In this document: piece by piece, positions 1-59,332 of the stretch
Layout: every line of letters starts with the position of its first letter
How positions within the stretch are numbered: the stretch's first letter is position 1
Assembly (NCBI GenBank): GCA_005884195.1
Contig: VBBP01000055.1
Coordinates: forward strand, 15,021 to 79,020
Source: Candidatus Bathyarchaeota archaeon
GTDB lineage: Archaea > Thermoproteota > Bathyarchaeia > 40CM-2-53-6
Direction of reading: 5' to 3'
DNA length: 64,000 nucleotides
Program-made: the position numbers and the translations under genes
The notes under the pieces: model-generated
Database searches by the model: none
Seen by the model: the letters and a program-made list of their open reading frames with translations, nothing else
What the model was told of the DNA's origin: nothing

Positions 1-1200
1 TCCGAGTATTCTGATCCCACTCACCTAGTCTTGAAGATGAAAAACGGCTACAACATAGGCATCTCTCTCGATAGAACCCAAAAGCTAGAGGTCATCGGTG
101 AGGGGGAGAAACCTCATTTCACCAAGCCTTCTCCACCGGCGAGTCATGCCGGGTTACCGAAGGTTTCAATTATCAGTACTGGCGGGACCATCGCCAGTAG
201 GGTTGACTATCGCACTGGTGCTGTGCAACCTGCACTCACAGCTGCCGACCTGGCAAGCGTCGTCCCAGAGCTCTCATCAATTGCAGAGATTGATACGCAC
301 ATCCTCTTCAGCGAGTACAGCGAGAGCATAGGCCCAACCCATTGGAAGGGCATGGCCGAAGAAGTCGCCAAAAAGATAGCCAACGGTGCAGAGGGAGTTG
401 TCATAAGCCATGGAACCGACACCCTACACTATACGGCGGCAGCTCTGAGTTTCGCCCTCGAAGGCATCCCTGTTCCAGTCCTACTCGTTGGAGCTCAGCG
501 ATCTTCTGACCGCCCCAGCTCAGACGCGGCCTCCAATCTCACGGGAGCAGTTGCGCTCGCCGCTCGTGCCGACATGGCCACTATTGGTGTTGCCATGCAC
601 CGAGACCTCTCTGACCACATTATCGTCGCTCATAGGGGCACTAGGGTCCGAAAGTGTCACACGAGTCGCCGAGACGCGTTCAAGTCGATAAACTCAGACC
701 ATCTGGCTAGCTACAATCTCAAGACCGGGCAGATCGAACTCGCCAATGAAGCTGCGAAGAGAGACAGGTCCCGGAAACTGGTTTTGAAGCCTCGTTTTGA
801 CCAACATGCGTACTTGATCAAGTTCTACCCGGGGATGAACCCGGGCATAATCGACTCCGCGGTTTCTACTGGAGCTCGAGGGATTGTCCTCGAAGGAACG
901 GGGCTAGGTCATGTTTCCGGACATTTATTCGATTCCGTGAAAAGAGCGTTGAAGCAAGAGGTTCCAGTCTTCATGGCTTCCCAGACGATTTGGGGACGCG
1001 TCGATATGAACGTCTACAACACTGGACGCGACCTGCTCAATCTAGGAGTCGCTCCTCTTGAAGACATGATTGCTGAAACGGCAATCGTCAAGCTGATGTG
1101 GGTCGCAGCCCAGACCAAGTCAGCAGGGAAGATTCGAGAGATGATGCTTCAGCCGATTGCAGGTGAAACAACTTCGAGGACACTGGCGGAGGCTTTCTAG
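1..1200 (+). CDS. gatD: Glu-tRNA(Gln) amidotransferase subunit D (GatD), 5'-partial at window edge
   Basis: Asparaginase-like motifs VSIISTGGTIAS and GTDT. The frame is open back to nt 1, and the N-terminal domain of GatD homologues is missing, so the gene starts upstream of the window. It ends at TAG 1198-1200. Confidence 0.88.
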   Translation, partial: SEYSDPTHLVLKMKNGYNIGISLDRTQKLEVIGEGEKPHFTKPSPPASHAGLPKVSIISTGGTIASRVDYRTGAVQPALTAADLASVVPELSSIAEIDTHILFSEYSESIGPTHWKGMAEEVAKKIANGAEGVVISHGTDTLHYTAAALSFALEGIPVPVLLVGAQRSSDRPSSDAASNLTGAVALAARADMATIGVAMHRDLSDHIIVAHRGTRVRKCHTSRRDAFKSINSDHLASYNLKTGQIELANEAAKRDRSRKLVLKPRFDQHAYLIKFYPGMNPGIIDSAVSTGARGIVLEGTGLGHVSGHLFDSVKRALKQEVPVFMASQTIWGRVDMNVYNTGRDLLNLGVAPLEDMIAETAIVKLMWVAAQTKSAGKIREMMLQPIAGETTSRTLAEAF

Positions 1201-3105
1201 TCGTCGGTAGACTATCGCGCGCTTGGTCTCAAGGTCGGTGTCGAGATACACAGACAGCTCGACACTGAGCACAAGCTCTTCTGCGATTGTCCAACCGTTC
1301 TATCCACAAGGCCCCCGACAGTCATCTTCGAGAGGCGACTTAGGCCCACACAGAGCGAGCTAGGCCAAATTGATCCCGCGGCTCTTTTTGAATTCCACAA
1401 GGGCAAGACCATCAGCTACGAGGCAGACCACGAAACCACGTGCCTGGTAGAGCTGGACGAGGAACCCCCCCACCGGTTGAACCCAGAAGGAGTGGATATC
1501 GCCCTAACCATGAGTATGCTTCTCCACGCGAAACCATTGGACGAGGTTCACGTCATGCGAAAGGTGGTCATCGACGGGTCAAACACAACCGGATTCCAGC
1601 GAACTGCGGTCATCGCACTCAACGGCTCCATAACCGTGGAAGGGGTTGAAGTTCCAATAGAACAAGTGACGCTTGAAGAGGACTCCGGGCGAAAAACAGG
1701 CGACACAAAGACCTCGGTAATCTTTCGTCTAGATCGGCTTGGAGTTCCGCTAATAGAAGTGTCGACTGGGCCAGTAATCCACGATCCAGAGCAGGCTGGA
1801 AGAGTTGCCTTTGCCATAGGCCGCATTCTCCGGGCAACCAAGAAAGTAAAACGAGGACTAGGAAGCATACGACAAGATCTCAACGTATCGATCAAGAACG
1901 GCGCCCTCATTGAGGTCAAGGGGGTTCAGGAACTCGAACTCGTTTCCAAGGCTGTAGGCTACGAGGTTCAAAGGCAGCTTGCGCTTCTCGAGATCAAAGA
2001 TGAGCTCCGACAGAGAAACGTGAACGCTTCGGATATCAAAGAGGAATTCGTTGACATCACCGACATTCTCTCGGGCTCAGAATCGAAGATCGTTCAATCC
2101 ACTCTCAAGCAGGGAGGAGTAGCATTGGCAGTCAAACTTCCCAGTTTCAAAGGCCTGCTCAAACGCGAACTAACCCCCAATGTCCGGCTCGGAACAGAAA
2201 TGGCCAAACGCGCGGTCTTCTGGGGTAGGGTTGGAGGAATATTCCATTCAGACGAGCTCCCTGCTTACGGAATTGATTCAAGCGGTGTCGAGGCGGTCGC
2301 TGAGAAGCTTGGATGTGGAGATCTTGATGGGTTTGTTGTCGTAGCAGATAGTCTCGAGAATTCGAAAGACGGTTTGAGGGCCGTCGTAGAGCGTGCCCGG
2401 GAGGCCGTGGAGAGGGTTCCGGAAGAAACACGGGCCGCAAACCCTGACGGGACCACTGTCTATCTGCGCCCAAGGCCTGGAGCTGCTAGAATGTATCCGG
2501 AGACCGATGTCCCACCGGTTCAGATCGGCGAGGACCGACTTGAACAGCTCTGGGAGAACCTTCCCCGAATGCCGGAAGAACTCGCCAAGGAACTAGAGAC
2601 CAAACATAGTCTCAGCTCCAAGCTAGCGACTCAGCTCGTGGATTCCGATTATCTTCCCCTTTTCGAAGAAATTGTCGCTCAAGCAAAAGGGGTCGCGCCC
2701 AGCTTCGTCGCAACGGTTCTCACAGAATCTCTGAGAAGTCTGCAAAGGGAACAAGTCCCTGTGGAAAATGTGCGGGAAGACCAGCTCAAACAAGCGTTCG
2801 ACCTGGTTTCAAAGGGCGCAACGGCAAAGGAGTCCGTTCTAGACGTTCTCAAATGGCTCGCATTCCACCCAGACGGAATCGCTGAAGAGGCGGTGGACAT
2901 GTTGAACCTCCGAATGCTGACCAAGTTGGATCTAGAGAATATCATCAGCAAAGTTGTTGAGTCTAATCAGACCTTCGTTCAAGAAAACGGATCGAAAGCC
3001 CTCGGACGAATGATGAACCTAGTAATGGGCGAGGTGCGGGGACGGGCTGACCCTCGACAAGTCACCGAACTATTGCGGTCTCGTTTGGAACAGGTCAGAA
3101 CATGA
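1201..3105 (+). CDS. gatE: Glu-tRNA(Gln) amidotransferase subunit E (GatE), start codon unresolved
   Basis: The conserved GatE N-terminus (VDYRALGLKVGVEIHRQLDTEHKLFCDCP) is encoded from nt 1207, in frame right after the gatD TAG. There is no ATG/GTG/TTG before the TTG at 1477. The rest is a GatB/YqeY-like C-terminal region. Confidence 0.82.
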   Translation, partial: SSVDYRALGLKVGVEIHRQLDTEHKLFCDCPTVLSTRPPTVIFERRLRPTQSELGQIDPAALFEFHKGKTISYEADHETTCLVELDEEPPHRLNPEGVDIALTMSMLLHAKPLDEVHVMRKVVIDGSNTTGFQRTAVIALNGSITVEGVEVPIEQVTLEEDSGRKTGDTKTSVIFRLDRLGVPLIEVSTGPVIHDPEQAGRVAFAIGRILRATKKVKRGLGSIRQDLNVSIKNGALIEVKGVQELELVSKAVGYEVQRQLALLEIKDELRQRNVNASDIKEEFVDITDILSGSESKIVQSTLKQGGVALAVKLPSFKGLLKRELTPNVRLGTEMAKRAVFWGRVGGIFHSDELPAYGIDSSGVEAVAEKLGCGDLDGFVVVADSLENSKDGLRAVVERAREAVERVPEETRAANPDGTTVYLRPRPGAARMYPETDVPPVQIGEDRLEQLWENLPRMPEELAKELETKHSLSSKLATQLVDSDYLPLFEEIVAQAKGVAPSFVATVLTESLRSLQREQVPVENVREDQLKQAFDLVSKGATAKESVLDVLKWLAFHPDGIAEEAVDMLNLRMLTKLDLENIISKVVESNQTFVQENGSKALGRMMNLVMGEVRGRADPRQVTELLRSRLEQVRT

Positions 3106-25193: not shown

Positions 25194-26192
25194 CCTTAGG
25201 TCTATCAAATTCTCCTCGTTTGGACCGGTACCGATAAGCGTGACCGGAACCCCTGTCTCTTTCTCGATCTTGGAGATGAATGCCCTAGCGCCATCGTCGA
25301 GATCTTCAAGATGGCGAGCACCCTTGGCACTGGGGAATAGCACATCGAGCTTGGTCACCGCGATCTGAGTCGCCCCGTTAAGTTGAACGGCTCTTCTTGC
25401 GAGCTTGAAATCGAAAGGTGCGGCTCTCCTCTCTCGTCCGGTAACAGTTCCAAACTCTGTCCAACCGCGGCGTGCGACTTCCTCGCGATCTAGTTGGCCT
25501 TCAAGCGGTCCTTCTCCTACTCGTGTCACGTATGCCTTGAAGATGACTATGACATCGTCAACTTGAGTGGGACCCACTCCGACATCGGCGCACGCAGCAG
25601 AGGCTGTTGTGTCTTTTGACGTGACGTAAGGATAGGTTCCATGATAGAGGCTCAGAAAAGTGCCCTGTGTTCCTTCGATAATGATCTTTTTGTTCTCTGC
25701 AAGAGCTCTCTGAATTTCTCCAACCGTATCGCCGACGTACGGTTTGAGACTTGGAATCGTCTGAGCCATTTTGGCCATTCTCAAGGCTCGTTCTGCATTA
25801 CAGGCTCCGACTCCGCTTTTAGTTGAGCCAACTTTGTTTGACAGGTGATCCGATCGTGATTCCTGCTCTTTGTGGCGTGGTTCAACAATGGCGCACTGAT
25901 TATCGACCTCGATTCTTCGTTCTGAGTCGGTTTTCCGGAGTTCGTCCAGCAATACAGTCGGGTCAACGGGGACTCCGGGTCCAATGAGAAGCCGTGTAGC
26001 GCGGTTCACAAAGCCGCTCGGGATGAGTCTAAGCGAGTACTGGACCCCGCCGTGAATTACAGTGTGGCCGGCGTTCGGTCCGTTCCCGCCCCTCACGCAT
26101 ATGTCGGGCTTGTCCTTCATTGCTAGATAAGCGGCTATCTTCCCCTTCCCCTCATCTCCAAAGAATCCGCCGACAATGACCGTGCAGGGCAA
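25140..26192 (-). CDS. purA: adenylosuccinate synthetase
   Basis: GGFFGDEGKGK P-loop and GHTV motifs. Confidence 0.9.
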   Translation of the reverse strand: MPCTVIVGGFFGDEGKGKIAAYLAMKDKPDICVRGGNGPNAGHTVIHGGVQYSLRLIPSGFVNRATRLLIGPGVPVDPTVLLDELRKTDSERRIEVDNQCAIVEPRHKEQESRSDHLSNKVGSTKSGVGACNAERALRMAKMAQTIPSLKPYVGDTVGEIQRALAENKKIIIEGTQGTFLSLYHGTYPYVTSKDTTASAACADVGVGPTQVDDVIVIFKAYVTRVGEGPLEGQLDREEVARRGWTEFGTVTGRERRAAPFDFKLARRAVQLNGATQIAVTKLDVLFPSAKGARHLEDLDDGARAFISKIEKETGVPVTLIGTGPNEENLIDLRSVARGPRVRTAPIVRQN

Positions 26193-26413
26193 CAGGTATC
26201 CACGCAGCGTAGAACTACAATAGAATAAGACTTTTGAAATGATTCTCTGAAAACTAATTCTGATCTAGCACAGATCTTCGATCTGCCGAATCCTAAGACG
26301 CGAGATGGGGAGCCTCTCGATTTAACCGGCATGAAGGGGGGTGCGGCAGGTTCTAAAATTGGCTGGAAAAAACGGTGGAGAGTGCGGCTGGAAAGGCCAC
26401 ACTTATGTCCGGC

Positions 26414-27844
26414 TTATGGGTCGTGGGAGTGTTCGTAGCCGGGGACTGGGTGCGGGAGATAGGGAAATACCGACAGGAACGACGCGGTATTTGGTGGCTG
26501 GACAGGGTTGCCTGCCGGGATGCCCTGGGTTACCAGACTTACCGCGCCGTCTGTGGTGAAATTCCTGTCTACCAGTGGTAAGGTCGCGCCAGCTATCGCT
26601 TTGATCTCGATGTCCACAACATCGTCTAGTACTCTTCGTCCGTTGGGGAATCCTGCCGGGTCTCCGCCTACGAGTCCCAGTCGGTTGGGGTTCGTGGTGT
26701 TTGGAGGAATTGCAAGGTTGAGACGAAGGTAGTCAGCCTGGAGAGGCCCTGTGAAGTTCTGGAACCCTGGAATTATGCCCGCCGGTATTCCCGTTAGGAG
26801 TATTGCGATGAGGTCTGCGCGCGCCTCGGTTACCGCTGCCAGGTTCGGGAAGACTCCGGGGTAGAGCACGGGGAGTAGTTTCTGAAGTTCTGGTGTCTGG
26901 TAATACTTGAGGAATTGAGAGTCGAACCTAGGAAGTGAAGTGTTCCAGAAGTCTTTCTTTCCCAACGGGATTATTACCTCATTGATCAGAGGCATTCCAA
27001 GCCGGGACACTTGTGTAAAAGGCCCAGTGACGACCTCGTCAGATCGGTTGTCGCCTGATTGGTTGTCGTCTCCGTCGGTGGGAAGGATGGCTGCCCTTTG
27101 TCTACTCGCGGATGCCCATATTCCGATCGTAGAGTTCTTTCCCAGTGGATCAGTGGGGTTTGATCCATCCGATGTCAGTTTGTTCCTTGGTACTTGTATT
27201 GCGATGCTATGAACGCTGAATCCTTTTGTGGCGTCAACGCCTGGAGCCGCGGGTGTAGGTATGAGGTGGAAATTCTGGACTGGTCTGAGAGCTCCCAGGT
27301 CGAATATTGATCCGAGATCTACGTAGAACGCTTCGTCTCTCTGGCCGGCGAAGACCGTCGAGCTATCGCTCAATGTGTTGATCGCGGTGTTTGCGAGGTT
27401 GGCATAGTTCGGCGTTGACCGAGGTCCGATGTTGACGGGTGGGGTTGGGAGGTTCCTGCCTAGATTCGTGGATGAACCTCTCCTTCTTGGTCCAACAACT
27501 TTTGTGACTGAGTAGGATTGTTTCACGTTCCATGAGGAATCGGTGAGGGATCCGATTGGGCCGGTGTTGTAGAGGAAGGTGTCTGGGTTTCCGATCATGG
27601 TCTTGAATCTGAACTGGTAGGTTATGTCTTCTATTCCGTCGCCGTTGTTGTCTATTACGATCTCATAGAGCACGTCGTCCCCAAAGGTGTTGAAGTTGGG
27701 GCCTCCCGCTGGTTCCTCTAACGGAATGTAGTTAGCTAGGATAGTTGCTGTGTCAGGCTTGTCAGGGCTAACAAAAGCATAGAGGTCGGTGTTGTCAGCG
27801 ACCGGGTCCTTGGAGATTTTGGGCGCTTCTCTGTGGGATGTCAT
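26414..27844 (-). CDS. DUF4331 family protein (bacterial-type), no signal peptide
   Basis: Hallmark N-terminus MTSHREAPKISKDPVADNTDLYAFVSPD of the DUF4331 family, with a long Gly/Asn/Pro/Thr-rich beta-type body. Confidence 0.78.
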   Translation of the reverse strand: MTSHREAPKISKDPVADNTDLYAFVSPDKPDTATILANYIPLEEPAGGPNFNTFGDDVLYEIVIDNNGDGIEDITYQFRFKTMIGNPDTFLYNTGPIGSLTDSSWNVKQSYSVTKVVGPRRRGSSTNLGRNLPTPPVNIGPRSTPNYANLANTAINTLSDSSTVFAGQRDEAFYVDLGSIFDLGALRPVQNFHLIPTPAAPGVDATKGFSVHSIAIQVPRNKLTSDGSNPTDPLGKNSTIGIWASASRQRAAILPTDGDDNQSGDNRSDEVVTGPFTQVSRLGMPLINEVIIPLGKKDFWNTSLPRFDSQFLKYYQTPELQKLLPVLYPGVFPNLAAVTEARADLIAILLTGIPAGIIPGFQNFTGPLQADYLRLNLAIPPNTTNPNRLGLVGGDPAGFPNGRRVLDDVVDIEIKAIAGATLPLVDRNFTTDGAVSLVTQGIPAGNPVQPPNTASFLSVFPYLPHPVPGYEHSHDP

Positions 27845-27847
27845 CGT

Positions 27848-28159
27848 CTAGTTTCCTGCTCGTAGCTTGTCCGCAATCCGGGCGGCCAATCCTGCATCTT
27901 TCACCTTCACGGATAGCTGGCCATTCATGACGGTTAGTTGATCACCGCTTACAGAGGCAACAATCGGCTCTGCGCTGTCGTTCGTCGCCGGGGTTTTCGG
28001 CTGCTCTGCTGGAATGGGAATCTTGCCCATGAGGGCCGTGGCGCCGGCCGCTACCGCAGCGGCTCCTACGCCGAATTTCAAGAAGTCTCTTCGGGATATC
28101 TTGTTTCTTGAGTCCTGTTCGGACTCGGCTTTCTCGTCAGTCTTCTTATTCTCTTTCAA
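27848..28159 (-). CDS. small secreted protein with a twin-arginine (Tat) signal peptide
   Basis: SRRDFLKFGVGAAAVAAGATALMG fits the Tat consensus plus a hydrophobic region. Likely TTG start at 28159 (the track extends to 28273). Ends at TAG, 3 nt before the DUF4331 ATG and in the same frame. Confidence 0.6.
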   Translation of the reverse strand: MKENKKTDEKAESEQDSRNKISRRDFLKFGVGAAAVAAGATALMGKIPIPAEQPKTPATNDSAEPIVASVSGDQLTVMNGQLSVKVKDAGLAARIADKLRAGN

Positions 28160-28402
28160 GGATTTCTGGCTGACATGGCTTGGATTGATTCTTAACGGTT
28201 TTTCCAAATTTCCCCGGAATCTGGCCCATATTCTACCTGGAGATAGCCGGAGAGGGCTACTCGCAATAGTCAATATCGCCGCAGATGTCTATCGCGAATC
28301 TAATCTCTAAGAACTCTCGCGAAAGGTCTGAGCTAGTGCGGAGTGAATTTCCGAGCGATTTGAGCTTGCGTTTGGAGAATGGGTGCGAGGAGTAGTTCTG
28401 CC

Positions 28403-28705
28403 CTATTTCCAGGTCACTCGGAGGAGGTTCGCTAGAGCAAGGGCCTCTCCGATATTTACAAGAAGCATGTAGGTGGACGCCTGATCCACGAAGGTGGCAG
28501 CGGAACTCACGTTTTGGAATAGAAACAGCCAGAATACTAGAATGGCTAGGTTCAGTACCACAAAGAAACTGCCAAAGAGAACGAGACCCAAGGTGAAGGA
28601 AGACTTGACCTTCCCGTACGTCCCGAGGTAGATTGCCAATAGTGCTAGGGTCATGGCTATGTTCGCGAAGGCAACTATTGCGCTAGCCCATAGTGCAAGA
28701 CCCAA
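28403..28705 (-). CDS. small membrane protein (3 TM)
   Basis: Hydrophobic helices. TTG start 11 nt after the arsR-like stop. Confidence 0.45.
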   Translation of the reverse strand: MGLALWASAIVAFANIAMTLALLAIYLGTYGKVKSSFTLGLVLFGSFFVVLNLAILVFWLFLFQNVSSAATFVDQASTYMLLVNIGEALALANLLRVTWK

Positions 28706-28716
28706 GCTTGGTCACT

Positions 28717-29142
28717 CTACTCCGGATTTGTTTTGTTTATCTTTCTTCTTCCAATTCTAGTCCAAATCTCGTCGAGGATCGGAAGCGCTTCTTCCATCTT
28801 AGAAGTAAGAAAGAGAACGGCACCATACGTTCCTTTTTCCGATGGAACGATTAGGCCATTCTCTTCTAGAACCCTAACGTGGTGTTGGATGGTTTTGTAG
28901 TCGACACCGAGAATTTGCGCAAGTTGATTAGCGTTGCAAGGACGGTTCTGGAGAGCCTTGATGATCTCAGCCCTGCTGGGTCCTCCACGTGTTCCAGCGA
29001 ACAGGTACCATAAGAGTCGTTTGAGATACTTCTCGCCATAGAGCGACGCCTTGGAGTCTTCCTTTGCCGTGGTGAGTAGAAATGGAATTCTGCGAATGAT
29101 TTGGCCAAGTTCAGGACGCAGTTGTGACTTTACAGTTATCAG
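28717..29142 (-). CDS. ArsR/SmtB-family winged-helix transcriptional regulator (missed by the ORF track)
   Basis: Hand translation of the minus strand gives ...PSRAEIIKALQNRPCNANQLAQILGVDYKTIQHHVRVLEENGLIV... No in-frame ATG/GTG/TTG near the N-terminus; CTG candidates at 29142 and 29121. The track's 28866..29108 ORF in another frame looks spurious. Confidence 0.6.
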   Translation of the reverse strand: MITVKSQLRPELGQIIRRIPFLLTTAKEDSKASLYGEKYLKRLLWYLFAGTRGGPSRAEIIKALQNRPCNANQLAQILGVDYKTIQHHVRVLEENGLIVPSEKGTYGAVLFLTSKMEEALPILDEIWTRIGRRKINKTNPE

Positions 29143-29303
29143 GCTGGATCATCTAGAGGATTGGTCGTCCGTTCGAATTATCTGGTTGGTCCCGTTATAA
29201 TATTTCTGCGACTCTGTCAAGACTTCGAGACTGGTCACGATAATTTCCTTTTTGGCTATCGGGAGGGTCAGGGTTGGTGTGAAATCTTAGAGGAATTGGG
29301 ATT

Positions 29304-29334
29304 CGGGCGGACAATGTTATTATCAGCCCGCCCG
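29304..29334. promoter_or_regulatory. GC-clamped inverted repeat (CGGGCGG-N16-CCGCCCG) upstream of the arsR-like gene
   Basis: Perfect 7-bp arms seen in the sequence, lying between the tatC stop and the arsR-like start. Confidence 0.3.
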
Positions 29335-29467
29335 ATGTCGTTCGTCATTGCGTCGGCTGAGAACGCTCCGTCCGCATGTATTGCGGAAATTCATCATCTA
29401 ATTCCGACTCTGGATCTGGGTCTTTTAACTCATCTGGAGCGCTCCGTTGCGTGAATGAACCATCAGG

Positions 29468-30358
29468 TCAGATTCTCGCCTTTCCGCAACGGCCGCAGAA
29501 CACGCCACCTGGGTCCATGTCTCCCCCGCAGAAGCTACAGGCTGTCTCCAGAGGCACGGGCTCCACTTCGTCTTCTACACGTTCCTTTTCGTATCTCTTT
29601 GCATACCAGATTGCTCCTTCAAGCAGTATGATGATTGGAACAAACAATGCAACGTCTGCCAAGGGTCCGCCGTCGGGGGAAGCTATGGCAGTCAGAACTA
29701 GGAGTGATGCCCAGACGTACTTCCGATTCTTGGTAAGCATCTTCGTCCCGAGAACGTGCAATTTGACGAGTAGAACGAAGAAGACGGGAATTGTGAAGGC
29801 AAAGCCTGAGAGTACGATGACGAAGAAAACGAGGTTGTAGAACTGGTCGGCGAAAATGAAGGTGGATATTCCTACTGCTTGGAAGAAGGGGATAGAGAAG
29901 TAGAATATGAATGGCAAGAGAACGAAAAAGGCAAACGAAGCGCCTCCCATGAACAGGATCGAAAACGCTGCGACGAACGGGTATACCGACTGTTTCTCGT
30001 TGGCCTTGATTGCTGGGTCCACAAATTTGTATATCTCATAAGCGAGCACGGGGATACTTGTAGCGAATCCGAACACTGCGGATCCTACGACGATGAGCTC
30101 TAGGGGTGTGGTGACGGTTCCTCCGATCAATATGTACTGTGACGGCAGCAGTCGCGTCCTTATCGTGCCGAGAATCGCTGTTATTAGTGGATGGTAGACT
30201 TGGAAGGGATTTTGCAAGAACGAAAGGTCAGACGGGACAACAAGATAGAACAGGGTCGCAATGGCGAAGGAATAGATCCAGATTTTTATTCGTCTTGAAA
30301 GCTCTGAAATGTGGTCCCAAAGAGGTAGAACTTTTTCCCGCGATTGTTCTTCTGACAG
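29468..30358 (-). CDS. tatC: twin-arginine translocase subunit TatC with a C-terminal zinc ribbon, likely CTG start
   Basis: TatC helices (TTPLELIVVGSAVFGF ... YKFVDPAIKANEK). The conserved N-terminal region (PLWDHISELSRRI...) is encoded upstream of the track start with no ATG/GTG/TTG. CTG at 30358-30356 gives MSEEQSREKVLPLWDHISELSRRI, which aligns with E. coli [20 protein letters not shown]. C-terminal CxxC...CxxC (CSFCGG...CGRCG). Confidence 0.8.
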   Translation of the reverse strand: MSEEQSREKVLPLWDHISELSRRIKIWIYSFAIATLFYLVVPSDLSFLQNPFQVYHPLITAILGTIRTRLLPSQYILIGGTVTTPLELIVVGSAVFGFATSIPVLAYEIYKFVDPAIKANEKQSVYPFVAAFSILFMGGASFAFFVLLPFIFYFSIPFFQAVGISTFIFADQFYNLVFFVIVLSGFAFTIPVFFVLLVKLHVLGTKMLTKNRKYVWASLLVLTAIASPDGGPLADVALFVPIIILLEGAIWYAKRYEKERVEDEVEPVPLETACSFCGGDMDPGGVFCGRCGKARI

Positions 30359-30474
30359 AGGATTCCACTATCCTTTGCGGGCCGGGCAGATAGTCAATAA
30401 AATCATTGAGCGGGTTCAACTGGCCTAACGACAAGTAGGTACAGGGCTGATCTCGGAGGCTGGAACTTGTCGGA

Positions 30475-30762
30475 CTACTTTGTCTGAGCTGCTCTTACGA
30501 TCTCGTCAGATATCTCTTGACGCGTCTTGCCTTGAGTGTTAATCCCCAATTTGTGCGCTGTATCAGTTAGAGGATCAGACGTGGACAGAGCTGGCTGAGA
30601 GGGTGAGAGTGGGTTTGTTAGTCCTTTTGAGGCGTCGTCGAATTCTTTGCGTGCCCTTCCTATTGATCTCGCTAGTTCCGGTATTTTTTGTGGTCCCCAG
30701 ATCAGTATGACGGCTAGTACGCCCAGTATCAGTAGGATCTGGAACGGGTCTCCTAGAGCCAT
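30475..30762 (-). CDS. tatA: twin-arginine translocase subunit TatA
   Basis: MALGDPFQILLILGVLAVILIWGPQKIPELARSIGRARKEF. The ATG at 30762 is taken over the track's longer TTG form. Confidence 0.8.
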   Translation of the reverse strand: MALGDPFQILLILGVLAVILIWGPQKIPELARSIGRARKEFDDASKGLTNPLSPSQPALSTSDPLTDTAHKLGINTQGKTRQEISDEIVRAAQTK

Positions 30763-30889
30763 ATTATTCTCATTCCAAAGCTCAACGGTTCCGAGCTTTA
30801 ACTGTTTACCGTAATTAATACAGGAACCCGCTGTGCCCAAGGAAACCTTATTCTTCGGCCCAATTTGGGTCCGGCTAGGCGGCTAACAA

Positions 30890-31639
30890 CTGAAAGTAGT
30901 CGTGTGCGTGCGGCGCGTTCCGGACACAGCAACGCGCATCAAGATTGCACTTGATGGGAAATCAATTGTCACAAGCGATGCAGAGTTTGTAATCAATCCT
31001 TACGAAGAGTACGCTCTAGAACAGGGTGTTCAGCTAAAGGAGAAACACGGTGGAGAGGTCACTGTTCTCACCCTCGGACCCGAGAAGTCAACTAGCGTAA
31101 TTCTCAAAGCGCTAGCCCTTGGTGCGGACAAGGCGATTCATCTCAAGAGCGAAAATTTTCCAGATGACTCAAGCGCCGTTGCCCGGGCCATCGCTGCGGA
31201 ATTGAAATCAGTCGAATTCGACGTTCTCTTGTTTGGCAAGAAGGGTGTTGACGACGACAGCCAGCAAGTCGGGCAAATGGTAGCCGAACTTCTCGGGATT
31301 CCCTGCTCCACTCAAATCGTCAAACTCGACATCTCCGGTGGCAAGGCGATCGCTCATCGAGAAGTTGAAGGAGGAGTAATCGTTGTCGAGACTACCCTTC
31401 CGTCCGCATTCACCGCGGAAAAAGACTTGACCGTTCCTCGGTACGCGTCGCTAAGAGAATTAGTCGCTGCAAGGAAGAAACCTATTCTCGTGAAGGAGCC
31501 TCAACTGTTTCCGGGCATTCTGGAAATTGTCTCAATTCAATATCCTCCACCTAGACCTCCAGGCAGGGTACTAGGGAAGGGCGTTGAAGCGGTTCCAATA
31601 CTGGTCAAGGTTCTGCACGAAGAGGCCAAGGTGATCTAG
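30890..31639 (+). CDS. etfB: electron transfer flavoprotein beta subunit (FixA-like), likely CTG start
   Basis: The track starts at GTG 30902 (MCVRRVPDT). The CTG four codons upstream, right after a TAA, gives MKVVVCVRRVPDT, which matches the canonical MKIVVCVKQVPDT. Confidence 0.82.
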   Translation: MKVVVCVRRVPDTATRIKIALDGKSIVTSDAEFVINPYEEYALEQGVQLKEKHGGEVTVLTLGPEKSTSVILKALALGADKAIHLKSENFPDDSSAVARAIAAELKSVEFDVLLFGKKGVDDDSQQVGQMVAELLGIPCSTQIVKLDISGGKAIAHREVEGGVIVVETTLPSAFTAEKDLTVPRYASLRELVAARKKPILVKEPQLFPGILEIVSIQYPPPRPPGRVLGKGVEAVPILVKVLHEEAKVI

Positions 31640-57560: not shown

Positions 57561-57908
57561 TTGGGGGTTGAGGGAGAGGAGGCCCAACCCAGGAAGAGCA
57601 ATAGCAGGAGGTACATAGAAAATTTGTTGGGCTGGCCTAGTGAAGAGTCTACAGGGATCGGGGTTTACCGGACCACTCTCTTCACCTCTCTATTCGAGTA
57701 CTTCATCGTGCTCTTCTTCGGCACATGGTTAATCGTGGAGTATTTCTACAATGTCTATGAGCAGCAGTACTTTGGATCGTTCAATCCAGTCTTCCTGGTC
57801 GCTGTGTTGATGGCGGCTTCAGGCTACGGCTTCATGAGAATAGTTTCCACCGTCAGGACGGGCCTGCGGCCAACAAGGATGATAAAAAAGAACGAGGATG
57901 ATTATTGA
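57561..57908 (+). CDS. small membrane protein (2 TM)
   Basis: Hydrophobic helices. Its stop overlaps the next gene's start (ATGA). Confidence 0.45.
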   Translation: MGVEGEEAQPRKSNSRRYIENLLGWPSEESTGIGVYRTTLFTSLFEYFIVLFFGTWLIVEYFYNVYEQQYFGSFNPVFLVAVLMAASGYGFMRIVSTVRTGLRPTRMIKKNEDDY

Positions 57909-59332
57909 TGAGAAAACTAGGAATTACCACGATCGCGTCATTTGCGGTGAACGTAATCTTGAGCCTCTGGCTGGTAAACCAGTACTACTACGATGCATAT
58001 TTCCACTCCTACGTCGACGCCACTCTTGGACCCGTCTATCCGTTCATAGTCCTAACAGCAGGGCTAGGCGGGGGCTCAAGCCTCGGATACCTTCTCTTGA
58101 AAAGAAGACATACTGGAGACGGGACAGGAAAACTAGACAAGGCTAAACTGTTCAAGTCAAGCGGACCTGTCCAATCCCCTGGAAGCCTCTCCTCCTCTTC
58201 CCAAGGCAAGATCATGCCTACAGGACCTCCCCCAGGCCAAGTTTCTCGTCACACAGCATACGCAGTTCCGCCTCTGCCAAAGAGCTCAACTCCTTCAAGT
58301 GGCGGAGCACGTGGGACCGGTCCCTCCTCGCTATCCGTTACTTCGAAGACCCTTACTCCTTCCCCTTCAACCTCTCAGAGGCTAGAGCAGCTGACTCAAC
58401 CTTCAACCTCGATCTTGAACTCAACGCTCAGAGACCAATTTAGACCGGAGCAAGCCTCTAGGCCATCGCCCCCGCTTCCTCCGTCACCAATGTTGGGTCG
58501 CGGCGATAACACGCAGTCAATAAACAGAATTCCACCCGAACCTTCACGGATGAGTATTCCATCACAGTGGAAGCCGGAACCCGGGCAGTCAGGTCAGCGC
58601 GGTCCTGACTCGACCGTTTTTCCGAGGCCAGGTCAAATAGACGTGAAACAGGCGCCGGAATCTCCCGGCTTCGGTGGTCCGGTTGGCCAGGTTCCAAAAC
58701 CCCCTCAGGCATCTCAGACCCCGTTCCCGGTTTCGAAGTGGGTGTCTCCTGAGCAGAGAGCAGGCGGGCAGTGGACTGATCCGGTTCCAAAGCCCGGGCT
58801 CGCGACCCCTCAGAAGTGGGGTCCTCCACCAGGTCAGGGCGTCGGGCCTCGTCCTCCTCAAGGGGTCCCGCCACGACCGGGTCCCGGTCAAGTTCCAGGA
58901 CCTGCTGGTCAGCGCCCGCCTTTTCCACCGGCGCAAGGTGGTCCGCGCCCTCTTGGTTATCCAAACCCGGGCCGACCTGGACAGCCAGGGCCTGTCGGAG
59001 TCTCTCCGCCTTTCAGGCCTGATCAAACTCGTCCCATAGGGCCACCTCCGCCGGGGAGACCAGTCCAGTCTCCTGGCGGGCCATTCTCTCAACCTTGGAG
59101 TCCGCCGAAGGCTGCTGAGAAGGGAGAATCAGGAGGTGCTTCTCAGGGCAAGGATGTCACAACCTCTCCACCTCTTCGACCATCTCAGTTCGGAGCGTCA
59201 GAAAGCTCGCGGCCAACGGACGAAAAGACTGTTGAGCCGAGCTCTCCCGGTGGGGAGATGGATTGGGACACCGCGCTCGATACGATATTGAAGACGCTGA
59301 AGAAAGATCGGGGAGTAGGAGAGAGGACCTAG
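57905..59332 (+). CDS. membrane-anchored protein with a ~400-aa Pro/Gly/Gln/Ser-rich low-complexity region
   Basis: Two N-terminal TM helices, then PPG/PGQ/PRP repeats (GPRPPQGVPPRPGPGQVPGPAGQRPPFPP...). Confidence 0.6.
   Translation: MMRKLGITTIASFAVNVILSLWLVNQYYYDAYFHSYVDATLGPVYPFIVLTAGLGGGSSLGYLLLKRRHTGDGTGKLDKAKLFKSSGPVQSPGSLSSSSQGKIMPTGPPPGQVSRHTAYAVPPLPKSSTPSSGGARGTGPSSLSVTSKTLTPSPSTSQRLEQLTQPSTSILNSTLRDQFRPEQASRPSPPLPPSPMLGRGDNTQSINRIPPEPSRMSIPSQWKPEPGQSGQRGPDSTVFPRPGQIDVKQAPESPGFGGPVGQVPKPPQASQTPFPVSKWVSPEQRAGGQWTDPVPKPGLATPQKWGPPPGQGVGPRPPQGVPPRPGPGQVPGPAGQRPPFPPAQGGPRPLGYPNPGRPGQPGPVGVSPPFRPDQTRPIGPPPPGRPVQSPGGPFSQPWSPPKAAEKGESGGASQGKDVTTSPPLRPSQFGASESSRPTDEKTVEPSSPGGEMDWDTALDTILKTLKKDRGVGERT

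Follow-up and report, generated by a model that had tools for sequence, protein, structure and literature searches.

In Streptomyces, a small helper protein with a twin-arginine translocation (Tat) signal, MelC1, carries the signal-less tyrosinase MelC2 out of the cytoplasm and also loads it with copper (PMC2758597), and in HybO/HybC (hydrogenase-2 of E. coli) and PaoABC a signal-less passenger is likewise exported in complex with a partner that bears the twin-arginine (RR) signal (PMC4273604). Here we describe a locus in a 64,000-nucleotide stretch of contig VBBP01000055.1 from a Candidatus Bathyarchaeota archaeon (the window) whose core is probably a two-gene export module of this MelC1/MelC2-like hitchhiker type, consisting of a small Tat-signal protein, which we call the escort, and a DUF4331 protein without a signal peptide. 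The locus comprises six genes on the minus strand (26414-30840), encoding in gene order TatA, TatC, a regulator with the ArsR-type helix-turn-helix (HTH) fold, a DUF8036 protein, the small Tat-signal protein and the DUF4331 protein; unless indicated otherwise, all features given below are on this strand. Although hitchhiking is a known mechanism, this escort, this passenger family and the dichotomy between a signal in cis and a signal in trans appear to be undescribed, and our literature search for DUF4331, PF14224 and DUF8036 found no paper.

Pairing of a small Tat-signal gene with signal-less DUF4331

The DUF4331 protein (476 amino acids (aa), 26414-27844) matches Pfam PF14224 with 458 bits against a cut-off of 27 (E 5e-137, 26417-27844), its residues 3-466 corresponding to profile positions 2-421 of 421, and has more than 8000 homologues. 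It begins MTSHREAPKISKDPVADNTDLY, in which S-H-R-E-A-P is followed by D-x-[TSA]-D-x-[YFW]. An earlier reading made from the DNA letters only (hereafter the sequence-only reading) had described a DUF4331 protein with the SHREAP N-terminus, no signal peptide and a start 3 nt after the Tat-signal open reading frame (ORF), and all of this holds: the protein begins MTSHREAP, and its ATG lies 3 nt past a TAG stop.

The small gene in front of it most likely encodes 103 aa from a TTG at 28159 (27848-28159). The longest version of this ORF starts at 28273, and the 103-aa version is preferred because most database relatives have that length. The twin-arginine motif S-R-R-D-F-L-K (28076-28096) is followed by the hydrophobic region FGVGAAAVAAGATALMG, and the model TIGR01409 scores 26.6 against a cut-off of 16.7, with Pfam TAT_signal reaching 22.0 bits, just under its cut-off of 22.7. 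No other ORF in the 64 kb carries a Tat motif. A Pfam scan of the small protein gave only two Tat-signal models, with no other domain and no sign of homology to MelC1. The sequence-only reading had taken the Tat signal as the only recognisable feature of the protein, a description that proved too narrow, as its last ~35 residues form a conserved domain with a beta-beta-beta-alpha arrangement (residues ~65-101, 27857-27967). This mature domain is nearly invariant in close relatives, exceeds both signal and linker in conservation, can be aligned from Bathyarchaeia to Actinomycetota and has no conserved Cys or His ligands; AlphaFold2 (AF2) orders only these C-terminal ~35 residues of the protein, with a pLDDT of 73-79. 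The small proteins share a common plan of Tat signal, variable linker and C-terminal domain of ~35 residues, and their database relatives are, among the matches listed, stand-alone proteins of 80-143 aa without a further Pfam domain, whose sole name is 'twin-arginine translocation signal domain-containing protein'.

From species-representative genomes we obtained 80 loci by scanning, with DUF4331 proteins 49-92% identical to that of the window, and the addition of metagenomic loci brought the set to 83 non-redundant DUF4331 loci. These fall into two classes, class A with DUF4331 proteins that lack a signal and class B with DUF4331 proteins that have their own, mostly Sec-like signal peptide, and the two form separate clades in a neighbour-joining tree. 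The partner was scored with a hidden Markov model (HMM) of the small protein. By this measure the arrangement characteristic of hitchhiker systems, a signal-less passenger encoded beside an RR-signal partner, is present in 58 of the 59 assessable class A loci, with the partner directly upstream and on the same strand in 57, versus none of the 22 class B loci. The gap between the two genes has a median of 10 nt and lies within 20 nt in 35 of 58 loci, including overlaps of 1 nt and 4 nt. Nor is the arrangement peculiar to this archaeon: most of the closest bacterial homologues, from Actinomycetota, Chloroflexota, Dormibacterota and Aminicenantes, are also signal-less and paired.

We favor hitchhiking mainly because the signal in cis and the partner in trans are near-perfectly mutually exclusive. 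In the mechanism that we propose, the 103-aa escort would provide the twin-arginine signal in trans, its short conserved C-terminal domain would, still in the cytoplasm, bind DUF4331 in its folded, signal-less form, and the complex would then pass the membrane via TatA/TatC, which in this lineage are encoded just upstream. We infer from the gene arrangement that the two proteins bind each other physically and are co-exported in a Tat-dependent manner. A signal in cis would block the N-terminus of DUF4331 until after export, whereas a signal in trans would leave it free during folding in the cytoplasm and possibly during metal uptake, and such a free N-terminus during folding may be the reason why the signal is supplied in trans.

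The class B loci have a neighborhood of their own. A gene for a TPR protein lies directly downstream of DUF4331 in 19 of the 22 and a gene for an RcnA-like/DsbD_2 permease is found in 10 of the 22, and a cassette of ECF sigma factor, anti-sigma factor (RskA_C/zf-HC2), DUF4331, TPR protein and RcnA-like/DsbD_2 permease recurs in L065, L071, L072, L076, L077, L086 and others. Pairs of ECF sigma and anti-sigma factors are frequent in class B and present in some class A loci. As a separate observation, the precomputed annotations place respiratory complex I-like genes with domains of inteins or homing endonucleases (Hint_2, Intein_splicing and LAGLIDADG_3) beside the DUF4331 pair in two loci (L004, 11873-13471; L008, 12793-14550).

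Linkage to tat genes and alternatives to co-export

The tatA product (95 aa, 30475-30762, from an ATG at 30762, with a TTG at 30840 as an alternative upstream start) matches the Pfam model TatA_B_E, which describes the N-terminal transmembrane (TM) helix, hinge and amphipathic helix of TatA/E proteins, with 42 bits (cut-off 21, E 5.6e-11, 30478-30762), scoring under the cut-offs of the NCBIfam TatA models. TatC (296 aa counted from a CTG at 30358-30356, 29468-30358) matches Pfam TatC (E 1.3e-34, 120 bits against 25.1, 29471-30367) over profile positions 1-208 of 208, the whole six-TM core. Its best NCBIfam model is the archaeal TatC model TIGR01912, with 125.9 bits below a cut-off of 192.6, and since the NCBIfam equivalog cut-offs are not reached we regard the protein as a divergent TatC. 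The zinc ribbon that had been assigned to its C-terminus is seen as a zinc-ribbon-like CxxC-N10-CxxC tail (29486-29539, reading CSFCGGDMDPGGVFCGRC, with the letters CSFC-N10-CGRC), which is also present in the TatC of L010 and absent from the bacterial TatCs adjoining DUF4331; the cysteine pattern is thus there, while Pfam gave no zinc-ribbon match to it.

Across the loci, class A alone has tatA and/or tatC at a distance of up to 3 kb from DUF4331 (0 of 22 in class B). They are upstream of DUF4331 in Bathyarchaeia (L001, L009 and L010) and Solirubrobacterales (L048 and L056) and directly downstream in Chloroflexia (L020) and Dormibacterota (L036, L042 and L054), and tatA alone is nearby in L014 and L041. 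Since the TatCs adjoining DUF4331 are only distantly related to one another (E 1e-9 to 1e-17), we conclude that the linkage arose more than once and did not travel as one block, and by this evidence it is found in at least four unrelated lineages in differing arrangements. The gene-neighborhood comparison across archaea and bacteria, in which linkage could have been absent, therefore lends weight to the proposal of the sequence-only reading that the small protein, signal-less DUF4331 and tatAC belong together: the pairing is confined to the signal-less class, and so is the linkage to tat genes.

How far tatAC are dedicated to the pair is a separate matter. Their adjacency could be coincidental, with general Tat genes merely lying beside one substrate, and we hold this to be quite possible, if somewhat short of probable. 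The Bathyarchaeial loci L004 and L007 carry the pair without tatAC, a gap of 325 nt separates tatC from the rest of the locus, the flanks consist of core housekeeping genes (ETF, purA, cofCD and glmS) and TatC is of archaeal type. Coincidence does not readily account for a tat linkage that recurs in four or more unrelated lineages and is confined to the partnered class; if a genome of a few Mb has about one tatC, we estimate that chance would place it within 3 kb in fewer than 0.1 of the 59 loci. Moreover, a translocase can be both general and co-localised, as these are not mutually exclusive. Since L004 and L007 have the pair without tatAC, we take the pair to be the core module.

A different possibility is that the two proteins are functionally linked without being co-exported, DUF4331 remaining in the cytoplasm and the small protein being exported alone as a signal, anchor or regulator. 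The binding of escort to DUF4331 is a prediction, the ordered part of the small protein is just ~35 residues long and most class A loci have no tat genes nearby, all of which would suit such a division. Nevertheless, we consider it unlikely, as it fails to explain why the small gene is missing from every locus in which DUF4331 has its own signal and present in nearly every locus in which it has none, and fails equally to explain the clustering of tat genes with the signal-less class only. In addition, the core residues of DUF4331 are conserved across classes A and B, which suggests the same function in the same compartment.

Several findings nevertheless weigh against a hitchhiker module with its own translocase. 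In L037 the partner lies downstream of DUF4331, and L054 is without a partner. Among the matches listed, the best 120 of each search, the small domain was never fused to DUF4331. Tat genes are absent from the vicinity of most class A loci, L004 and L007 of the Bathyarchaeia among them, and the tatAC adjoining the pair in the window may be the general translocase of the organism. Finally, neither tatC nor the HTH gene has an ATG, GTG or TTG ahead of its conserved N-terminus, and given these noncanonical starts the expression of TatC and of the regulator is uncertain.

The DUF4331 N-terminus and a possible metal role

Comparison of 71 DUF4331 sequences from both classes showed a conservation of at least 97% for each of S3, H4, E6, A7 and P8, H4 being the only His to reach this level. 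In class A the start codon is invariably located exactly three codons before this His (M-[S/T]-S-H; M-T-S-H at 27833-27844 in the window), and in class B the signals end x[A/G]|S-S-H, position -3 being occupied by a small or aliphatic residue. Excision of the Met is favored by a Ser or Thr behind it, and an Ala or Gly at -1 agrees with cleavage by signal peptidase I. Since Met would be excised in class A and signal peptidase I would cleave in class B, the same mature N-terminus, [S/T]-S-His, is predicted for both classes, and that of the window protein would be T-S-His after Met removal.

A His at position 3 of the predicted mature chain is the pattern of the amino-terminal Cu(II)- and Ni(II)-binding (ATCUN) motif, NH2-X-X-His, which binds the metal via the amine, two amide nitrogens and the imidazole (PMC7701195). 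In addition, eight class A loci of several lineages, two of them from Nitrososphaerota, have a NiCoT permease gene (TIGR00802, 347 bits with a cut-off of 333) immediately downstream of DUF4331 and in the same orientation. Given the NH2-X-X-His pattern and the recurrent downstream genes for nickel/cobalt permeases, a role of DUF4331 with Ni/Co (or Cu) is plausible as a hypothesis. That the N-terminus itself is a Ni or Cu site is a more tentative suggestion, which we would place among the possibilities rather than the probabilities.

More speculatively, DUF4331 could represent a family of extracytoplasmic Ni/Co (or Cu) metalloproteins built on a free [S/T]-S-His N-terminus and made by two interchangeable routes, an extension that we regard as doubtful. 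In the trans route, to which the window protein would belong, NiCoT would import the metal, DUF4331 would fold and be loaded in the cytoplasm, and the ~35-residue escort domain with its Tat signal would export it. In the cis route, Sec export would be followed by loading outside the membrane, helped by the RcnA-like exporter and the TPR protein.

Some results speak against metal binding at the N-terminus. The strict requirement for Ser or Thr at position 1 and Ser at position 2 exceeds what an ATCUN site needs, the C-terminal GYEHxH motif is not universal among the 71 sequences, and the 64-kb window has no NiCoT homologue (nor one of the RcnA-like or class-B-type TPR proteins). An AF2 model of the DUF4331 protein (pLDDT 73, pTM 0.81) shows a beta-sandwich followed by a helical region with both termini disordered; its N-terminal 17 residues are of low confidence, and no metal site is visible there. 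The search for a solved structural relative gave none, as a sequence search of the PDB returned nothing and the best Foldseek match had E 0.019.

The same constraint on positions 1 and 2 could instead point to catalysis, with the free [S/T]-S-His N-terminus supplying a Ser/Thr nucleophile and a His base and DUF4331 being a secreted hydrolase. Ser or Thr invariably occupies position 1 and Ser position 2, and the many invariant Asp, Asn and Arg residues of DUF4331 would be in keeping with an active site; we consider a hydrolase improbable. The invariant N-terminal X-S-His points to a specific biochemical test, that of Ni/Cu binding.

Organization of the locus and comparison with known systems

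The proposal that the pair is one gene, the TAG between the small ORF and DUF4331 being read through by pyrrolysine insertion or suppression and the TAG of tatC likewise, is highly improbable: although the two ORFs share a frame in the window with only TAG-ACG between them, and an upstream ATG of tatC is cut off from the conserved N-terminus by a TAG in the same frame, the small gene of the 58 loci occurs in all three frames relative to DUF4331 (15, 21 and 22 loci), stops at TGA (43), TAG (12) or TAA (3) and at times overlaps its neighbor, in the close relatives L009 and L010 it stops at TGA and does not share the frame of DUF4331, many ordinary long ORFs of the window terminate in TAG, with GatD and GatE also joined in frame by TAG-ATG, and L010 has a TTG start after the TAG at tatC. 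On the frames, the stops and the TTG of L010, we rejected readthrough as a general mechanism at both sites. Because the small gene occurs in all three relative frames, the in-frame TAG of the window is attributed to chance, and the small ORF and DUF4331 are separate genes that in most cases are coupled. The GatD and GatE genes (1-3105, plus strand, GatD being cut at the window start) are in-frame neighbors whose TAG and ATG meet without a gap at the junction 1200/1201.

At the start of tatC stands a CTG (30356-30358), where the 83%-identical relative L010 has a TTG at exactly that place, and at the start of the HTH gene another CTG (29140-29142), where L009 and L010 both have TTG. Since they have no ATG, GTG or TTG start, the ORF listing gives tatC as 249 aa and omits the HTH gene. 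The CTG codons are not an assembly error, since two independent assemblies agree with the window sequence (100% and 99.9% identity). Either translation of both genes begins at CTG or their starts have become weaker. Immediately ahead of tatC, in its frame, is a 12-codon mini-ORF (MILLTICPARKG-TAG, 30368-30406), which is conserved in L010 as MILLSVCWIREG-TAG and may encode a leader peptide or may have been kept merely because the sequences are closely related.

The gene identities for which HMM searches had been suggested were all borne out: Pfam identifies five of the six genes of the locus, including DUF4331, TatC and HTH_5 with the E values given in the text, and the sixth encodes a DUF8036 protein of 100 aa with three predicted TM segments (28403-28705; PF26119 in the precomputed annotation of an identical gene). 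All six genes are co-oriented at the positions first assigned to them; their supposedly tight packing is uneven. In gene order, the gaps are 116 nt between tatA and tatC, 325 nt between tatC and the HTH gene, 11 nt between the HTH and DUF8036 genes, 243 nt from DUF8036 to the TTG start of the small ORF and 3 nt between the small ORF and DUF4331. In view of the 325- and 243-nt gaps and of a conserved 16-nt block just upstream of the small gene, we doubt that the six genes form a single operon. These features suggest a division into as many as three transcription units, with tatAC probably forming a separate one.

The 16-nt block, TTGGAAAAACCGTTAA (28192-28207), lies ~35 nt upstream of the small ORF start and is identical in all Bathyarchaeial loci (L004, 7635-7650; L007, 7629-7644; L009, 1424-1439; L010, 9637-9652), the proteins encoded there being 72-92% identical to those of the window. 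It has one match in the window versus 0.02 expected by chance. Since there is no Rfam match and the consensus fold is weak (-5 kcal/mol), we concluded that the 243-nt gap contains neither a riboswitch nor an RNA of another known kind and read the block as most likely a promoter or operator element. Operator-like repeats common to the three intergenic regions were also sought and rejected, as matches occurred at chance level only.

The regulator (141 aa counted from the CTG at 29142-29140, 28717-29142) has the winged-HTH ArsR fold, with a Pfam HTH_5 match of 40.4 bits against a cut-off of 22 (E 2.7e-10, 28720-29148). The responsiveness to metals or metalloids that had been suggested for it found no support: it scores 34 bits against a cut-off of 55 with the ArsR/SmtB metalloregulator model NF033788, it showed no conserved metal-sensing ligands (alpha-3 CxC or alpha-5 His/Asp/Glu sites), and its sole Cys (in NRPCNAN) is replaced by Ser or Thr in L007, L009, L010 and L014. 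In these same four loci the HTH and DUF8036 genes are found together upstream of the pair. Because both precede the pair there, the HTH and DUF8036 proteins make a plausible dedicated regulator/sensor pair, and they probably regulate the escort/DUF4331 module.

The acquisition of part of the locus from bacteria, which the sequence-only reading had supposed, is not borne out as a recent event. The GC content, GC3 and codon use of the six genes are within the range of the window, giving no compositional evidence for horizontal transfer, TatC matches best with an archaeal model, and the neighbour-joining tree puts the archaeal DUF4331 sequences close to the base of class A, in a group with single sequences from Aminicenantes and Limnocylindria. 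To judge from the tree, DUF4331 has been exchanged between the domains at some time; a recent transfer, or its direction, is not supported. The genes flanking the locus are archaeal housekeeping genes (ETF, FixCX, purA, cofCD, glmS, gatDE and CTP synthase). Searches of the window found no tRNAs, and Rfam gave no match for 26000-31200 at E up to 1 and none window-wide at the gathering threshold. Elsewhere in the window, a 476-aa ORF without a Pfam match (57902-59329, plus strand) lies in the kilobase of highest GC (0.594) and has atypical codon use (distance 0.55 versus a mean of 0.37); Rfam gave neither an rRNA nor any other family in this region.

With thousands of members in soil bacteria and archaea, DUF4331 would turn from an orphan domain into a testable system, in which a predicted Tat escort/passenger pair occurs in both domains of life and a natural 'experiment' with the signal in cis versus in trans has taken place within one family. 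If the proposal is true, the ~35-residue escort domain would be among the smallest known for Tat and could be useful for engineering export through Tat where the N-terminus of a protein must stay free. In genome annotation, a cytoplasmic location should not be presumed for DUF4331 proteins that lack a signal.

A close parallel to the proposed module is MelC1/MelC2, which is likewise bicistronic with the small Tat-signal gene upstream and the gene for the signal-less protein downstream. It differs in that the passenger here is a DUF4331 protein rather than a type-3 copper protein, that the ordered part of the escort is limited to ~35 residues, and that the proposed module, with its predicted binding, export and possible metal loading, occurs in both archaea and bacteria. 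Hydrogenase hitchhiking also couples nickel insertion in the cytoplasm to Tat export, a coupling that the NiCoT linkage of the DUF4331 loci parallels. The signal-bearing partners of those systems, HybO and PaoA, however, are catalytic subunits that contain cofactors, unlike the tiny domain of the escort, in which no Cys or His ligands are conserved. With respect to ATCUN sites, the likeness lies in a His at position 3 with a predicted free amine in all 71 sequences compared, and the difference in positions 1 and 2, which are far more constrained in DUF4331 than in the known sites. A further comparison is within the family itself: the class B proteins of Acidobacteriota, Chloroflexia, Gaiellaceae and others belong to the same Pfam family, are 49-54% identical to the window protein and resemble it in their predicted mature N-terminus, S-S-His, and in the conserved core residues, yet they differ from it in having a cis signal that looks Sec-type, no small partner and no linkage to tat genes.

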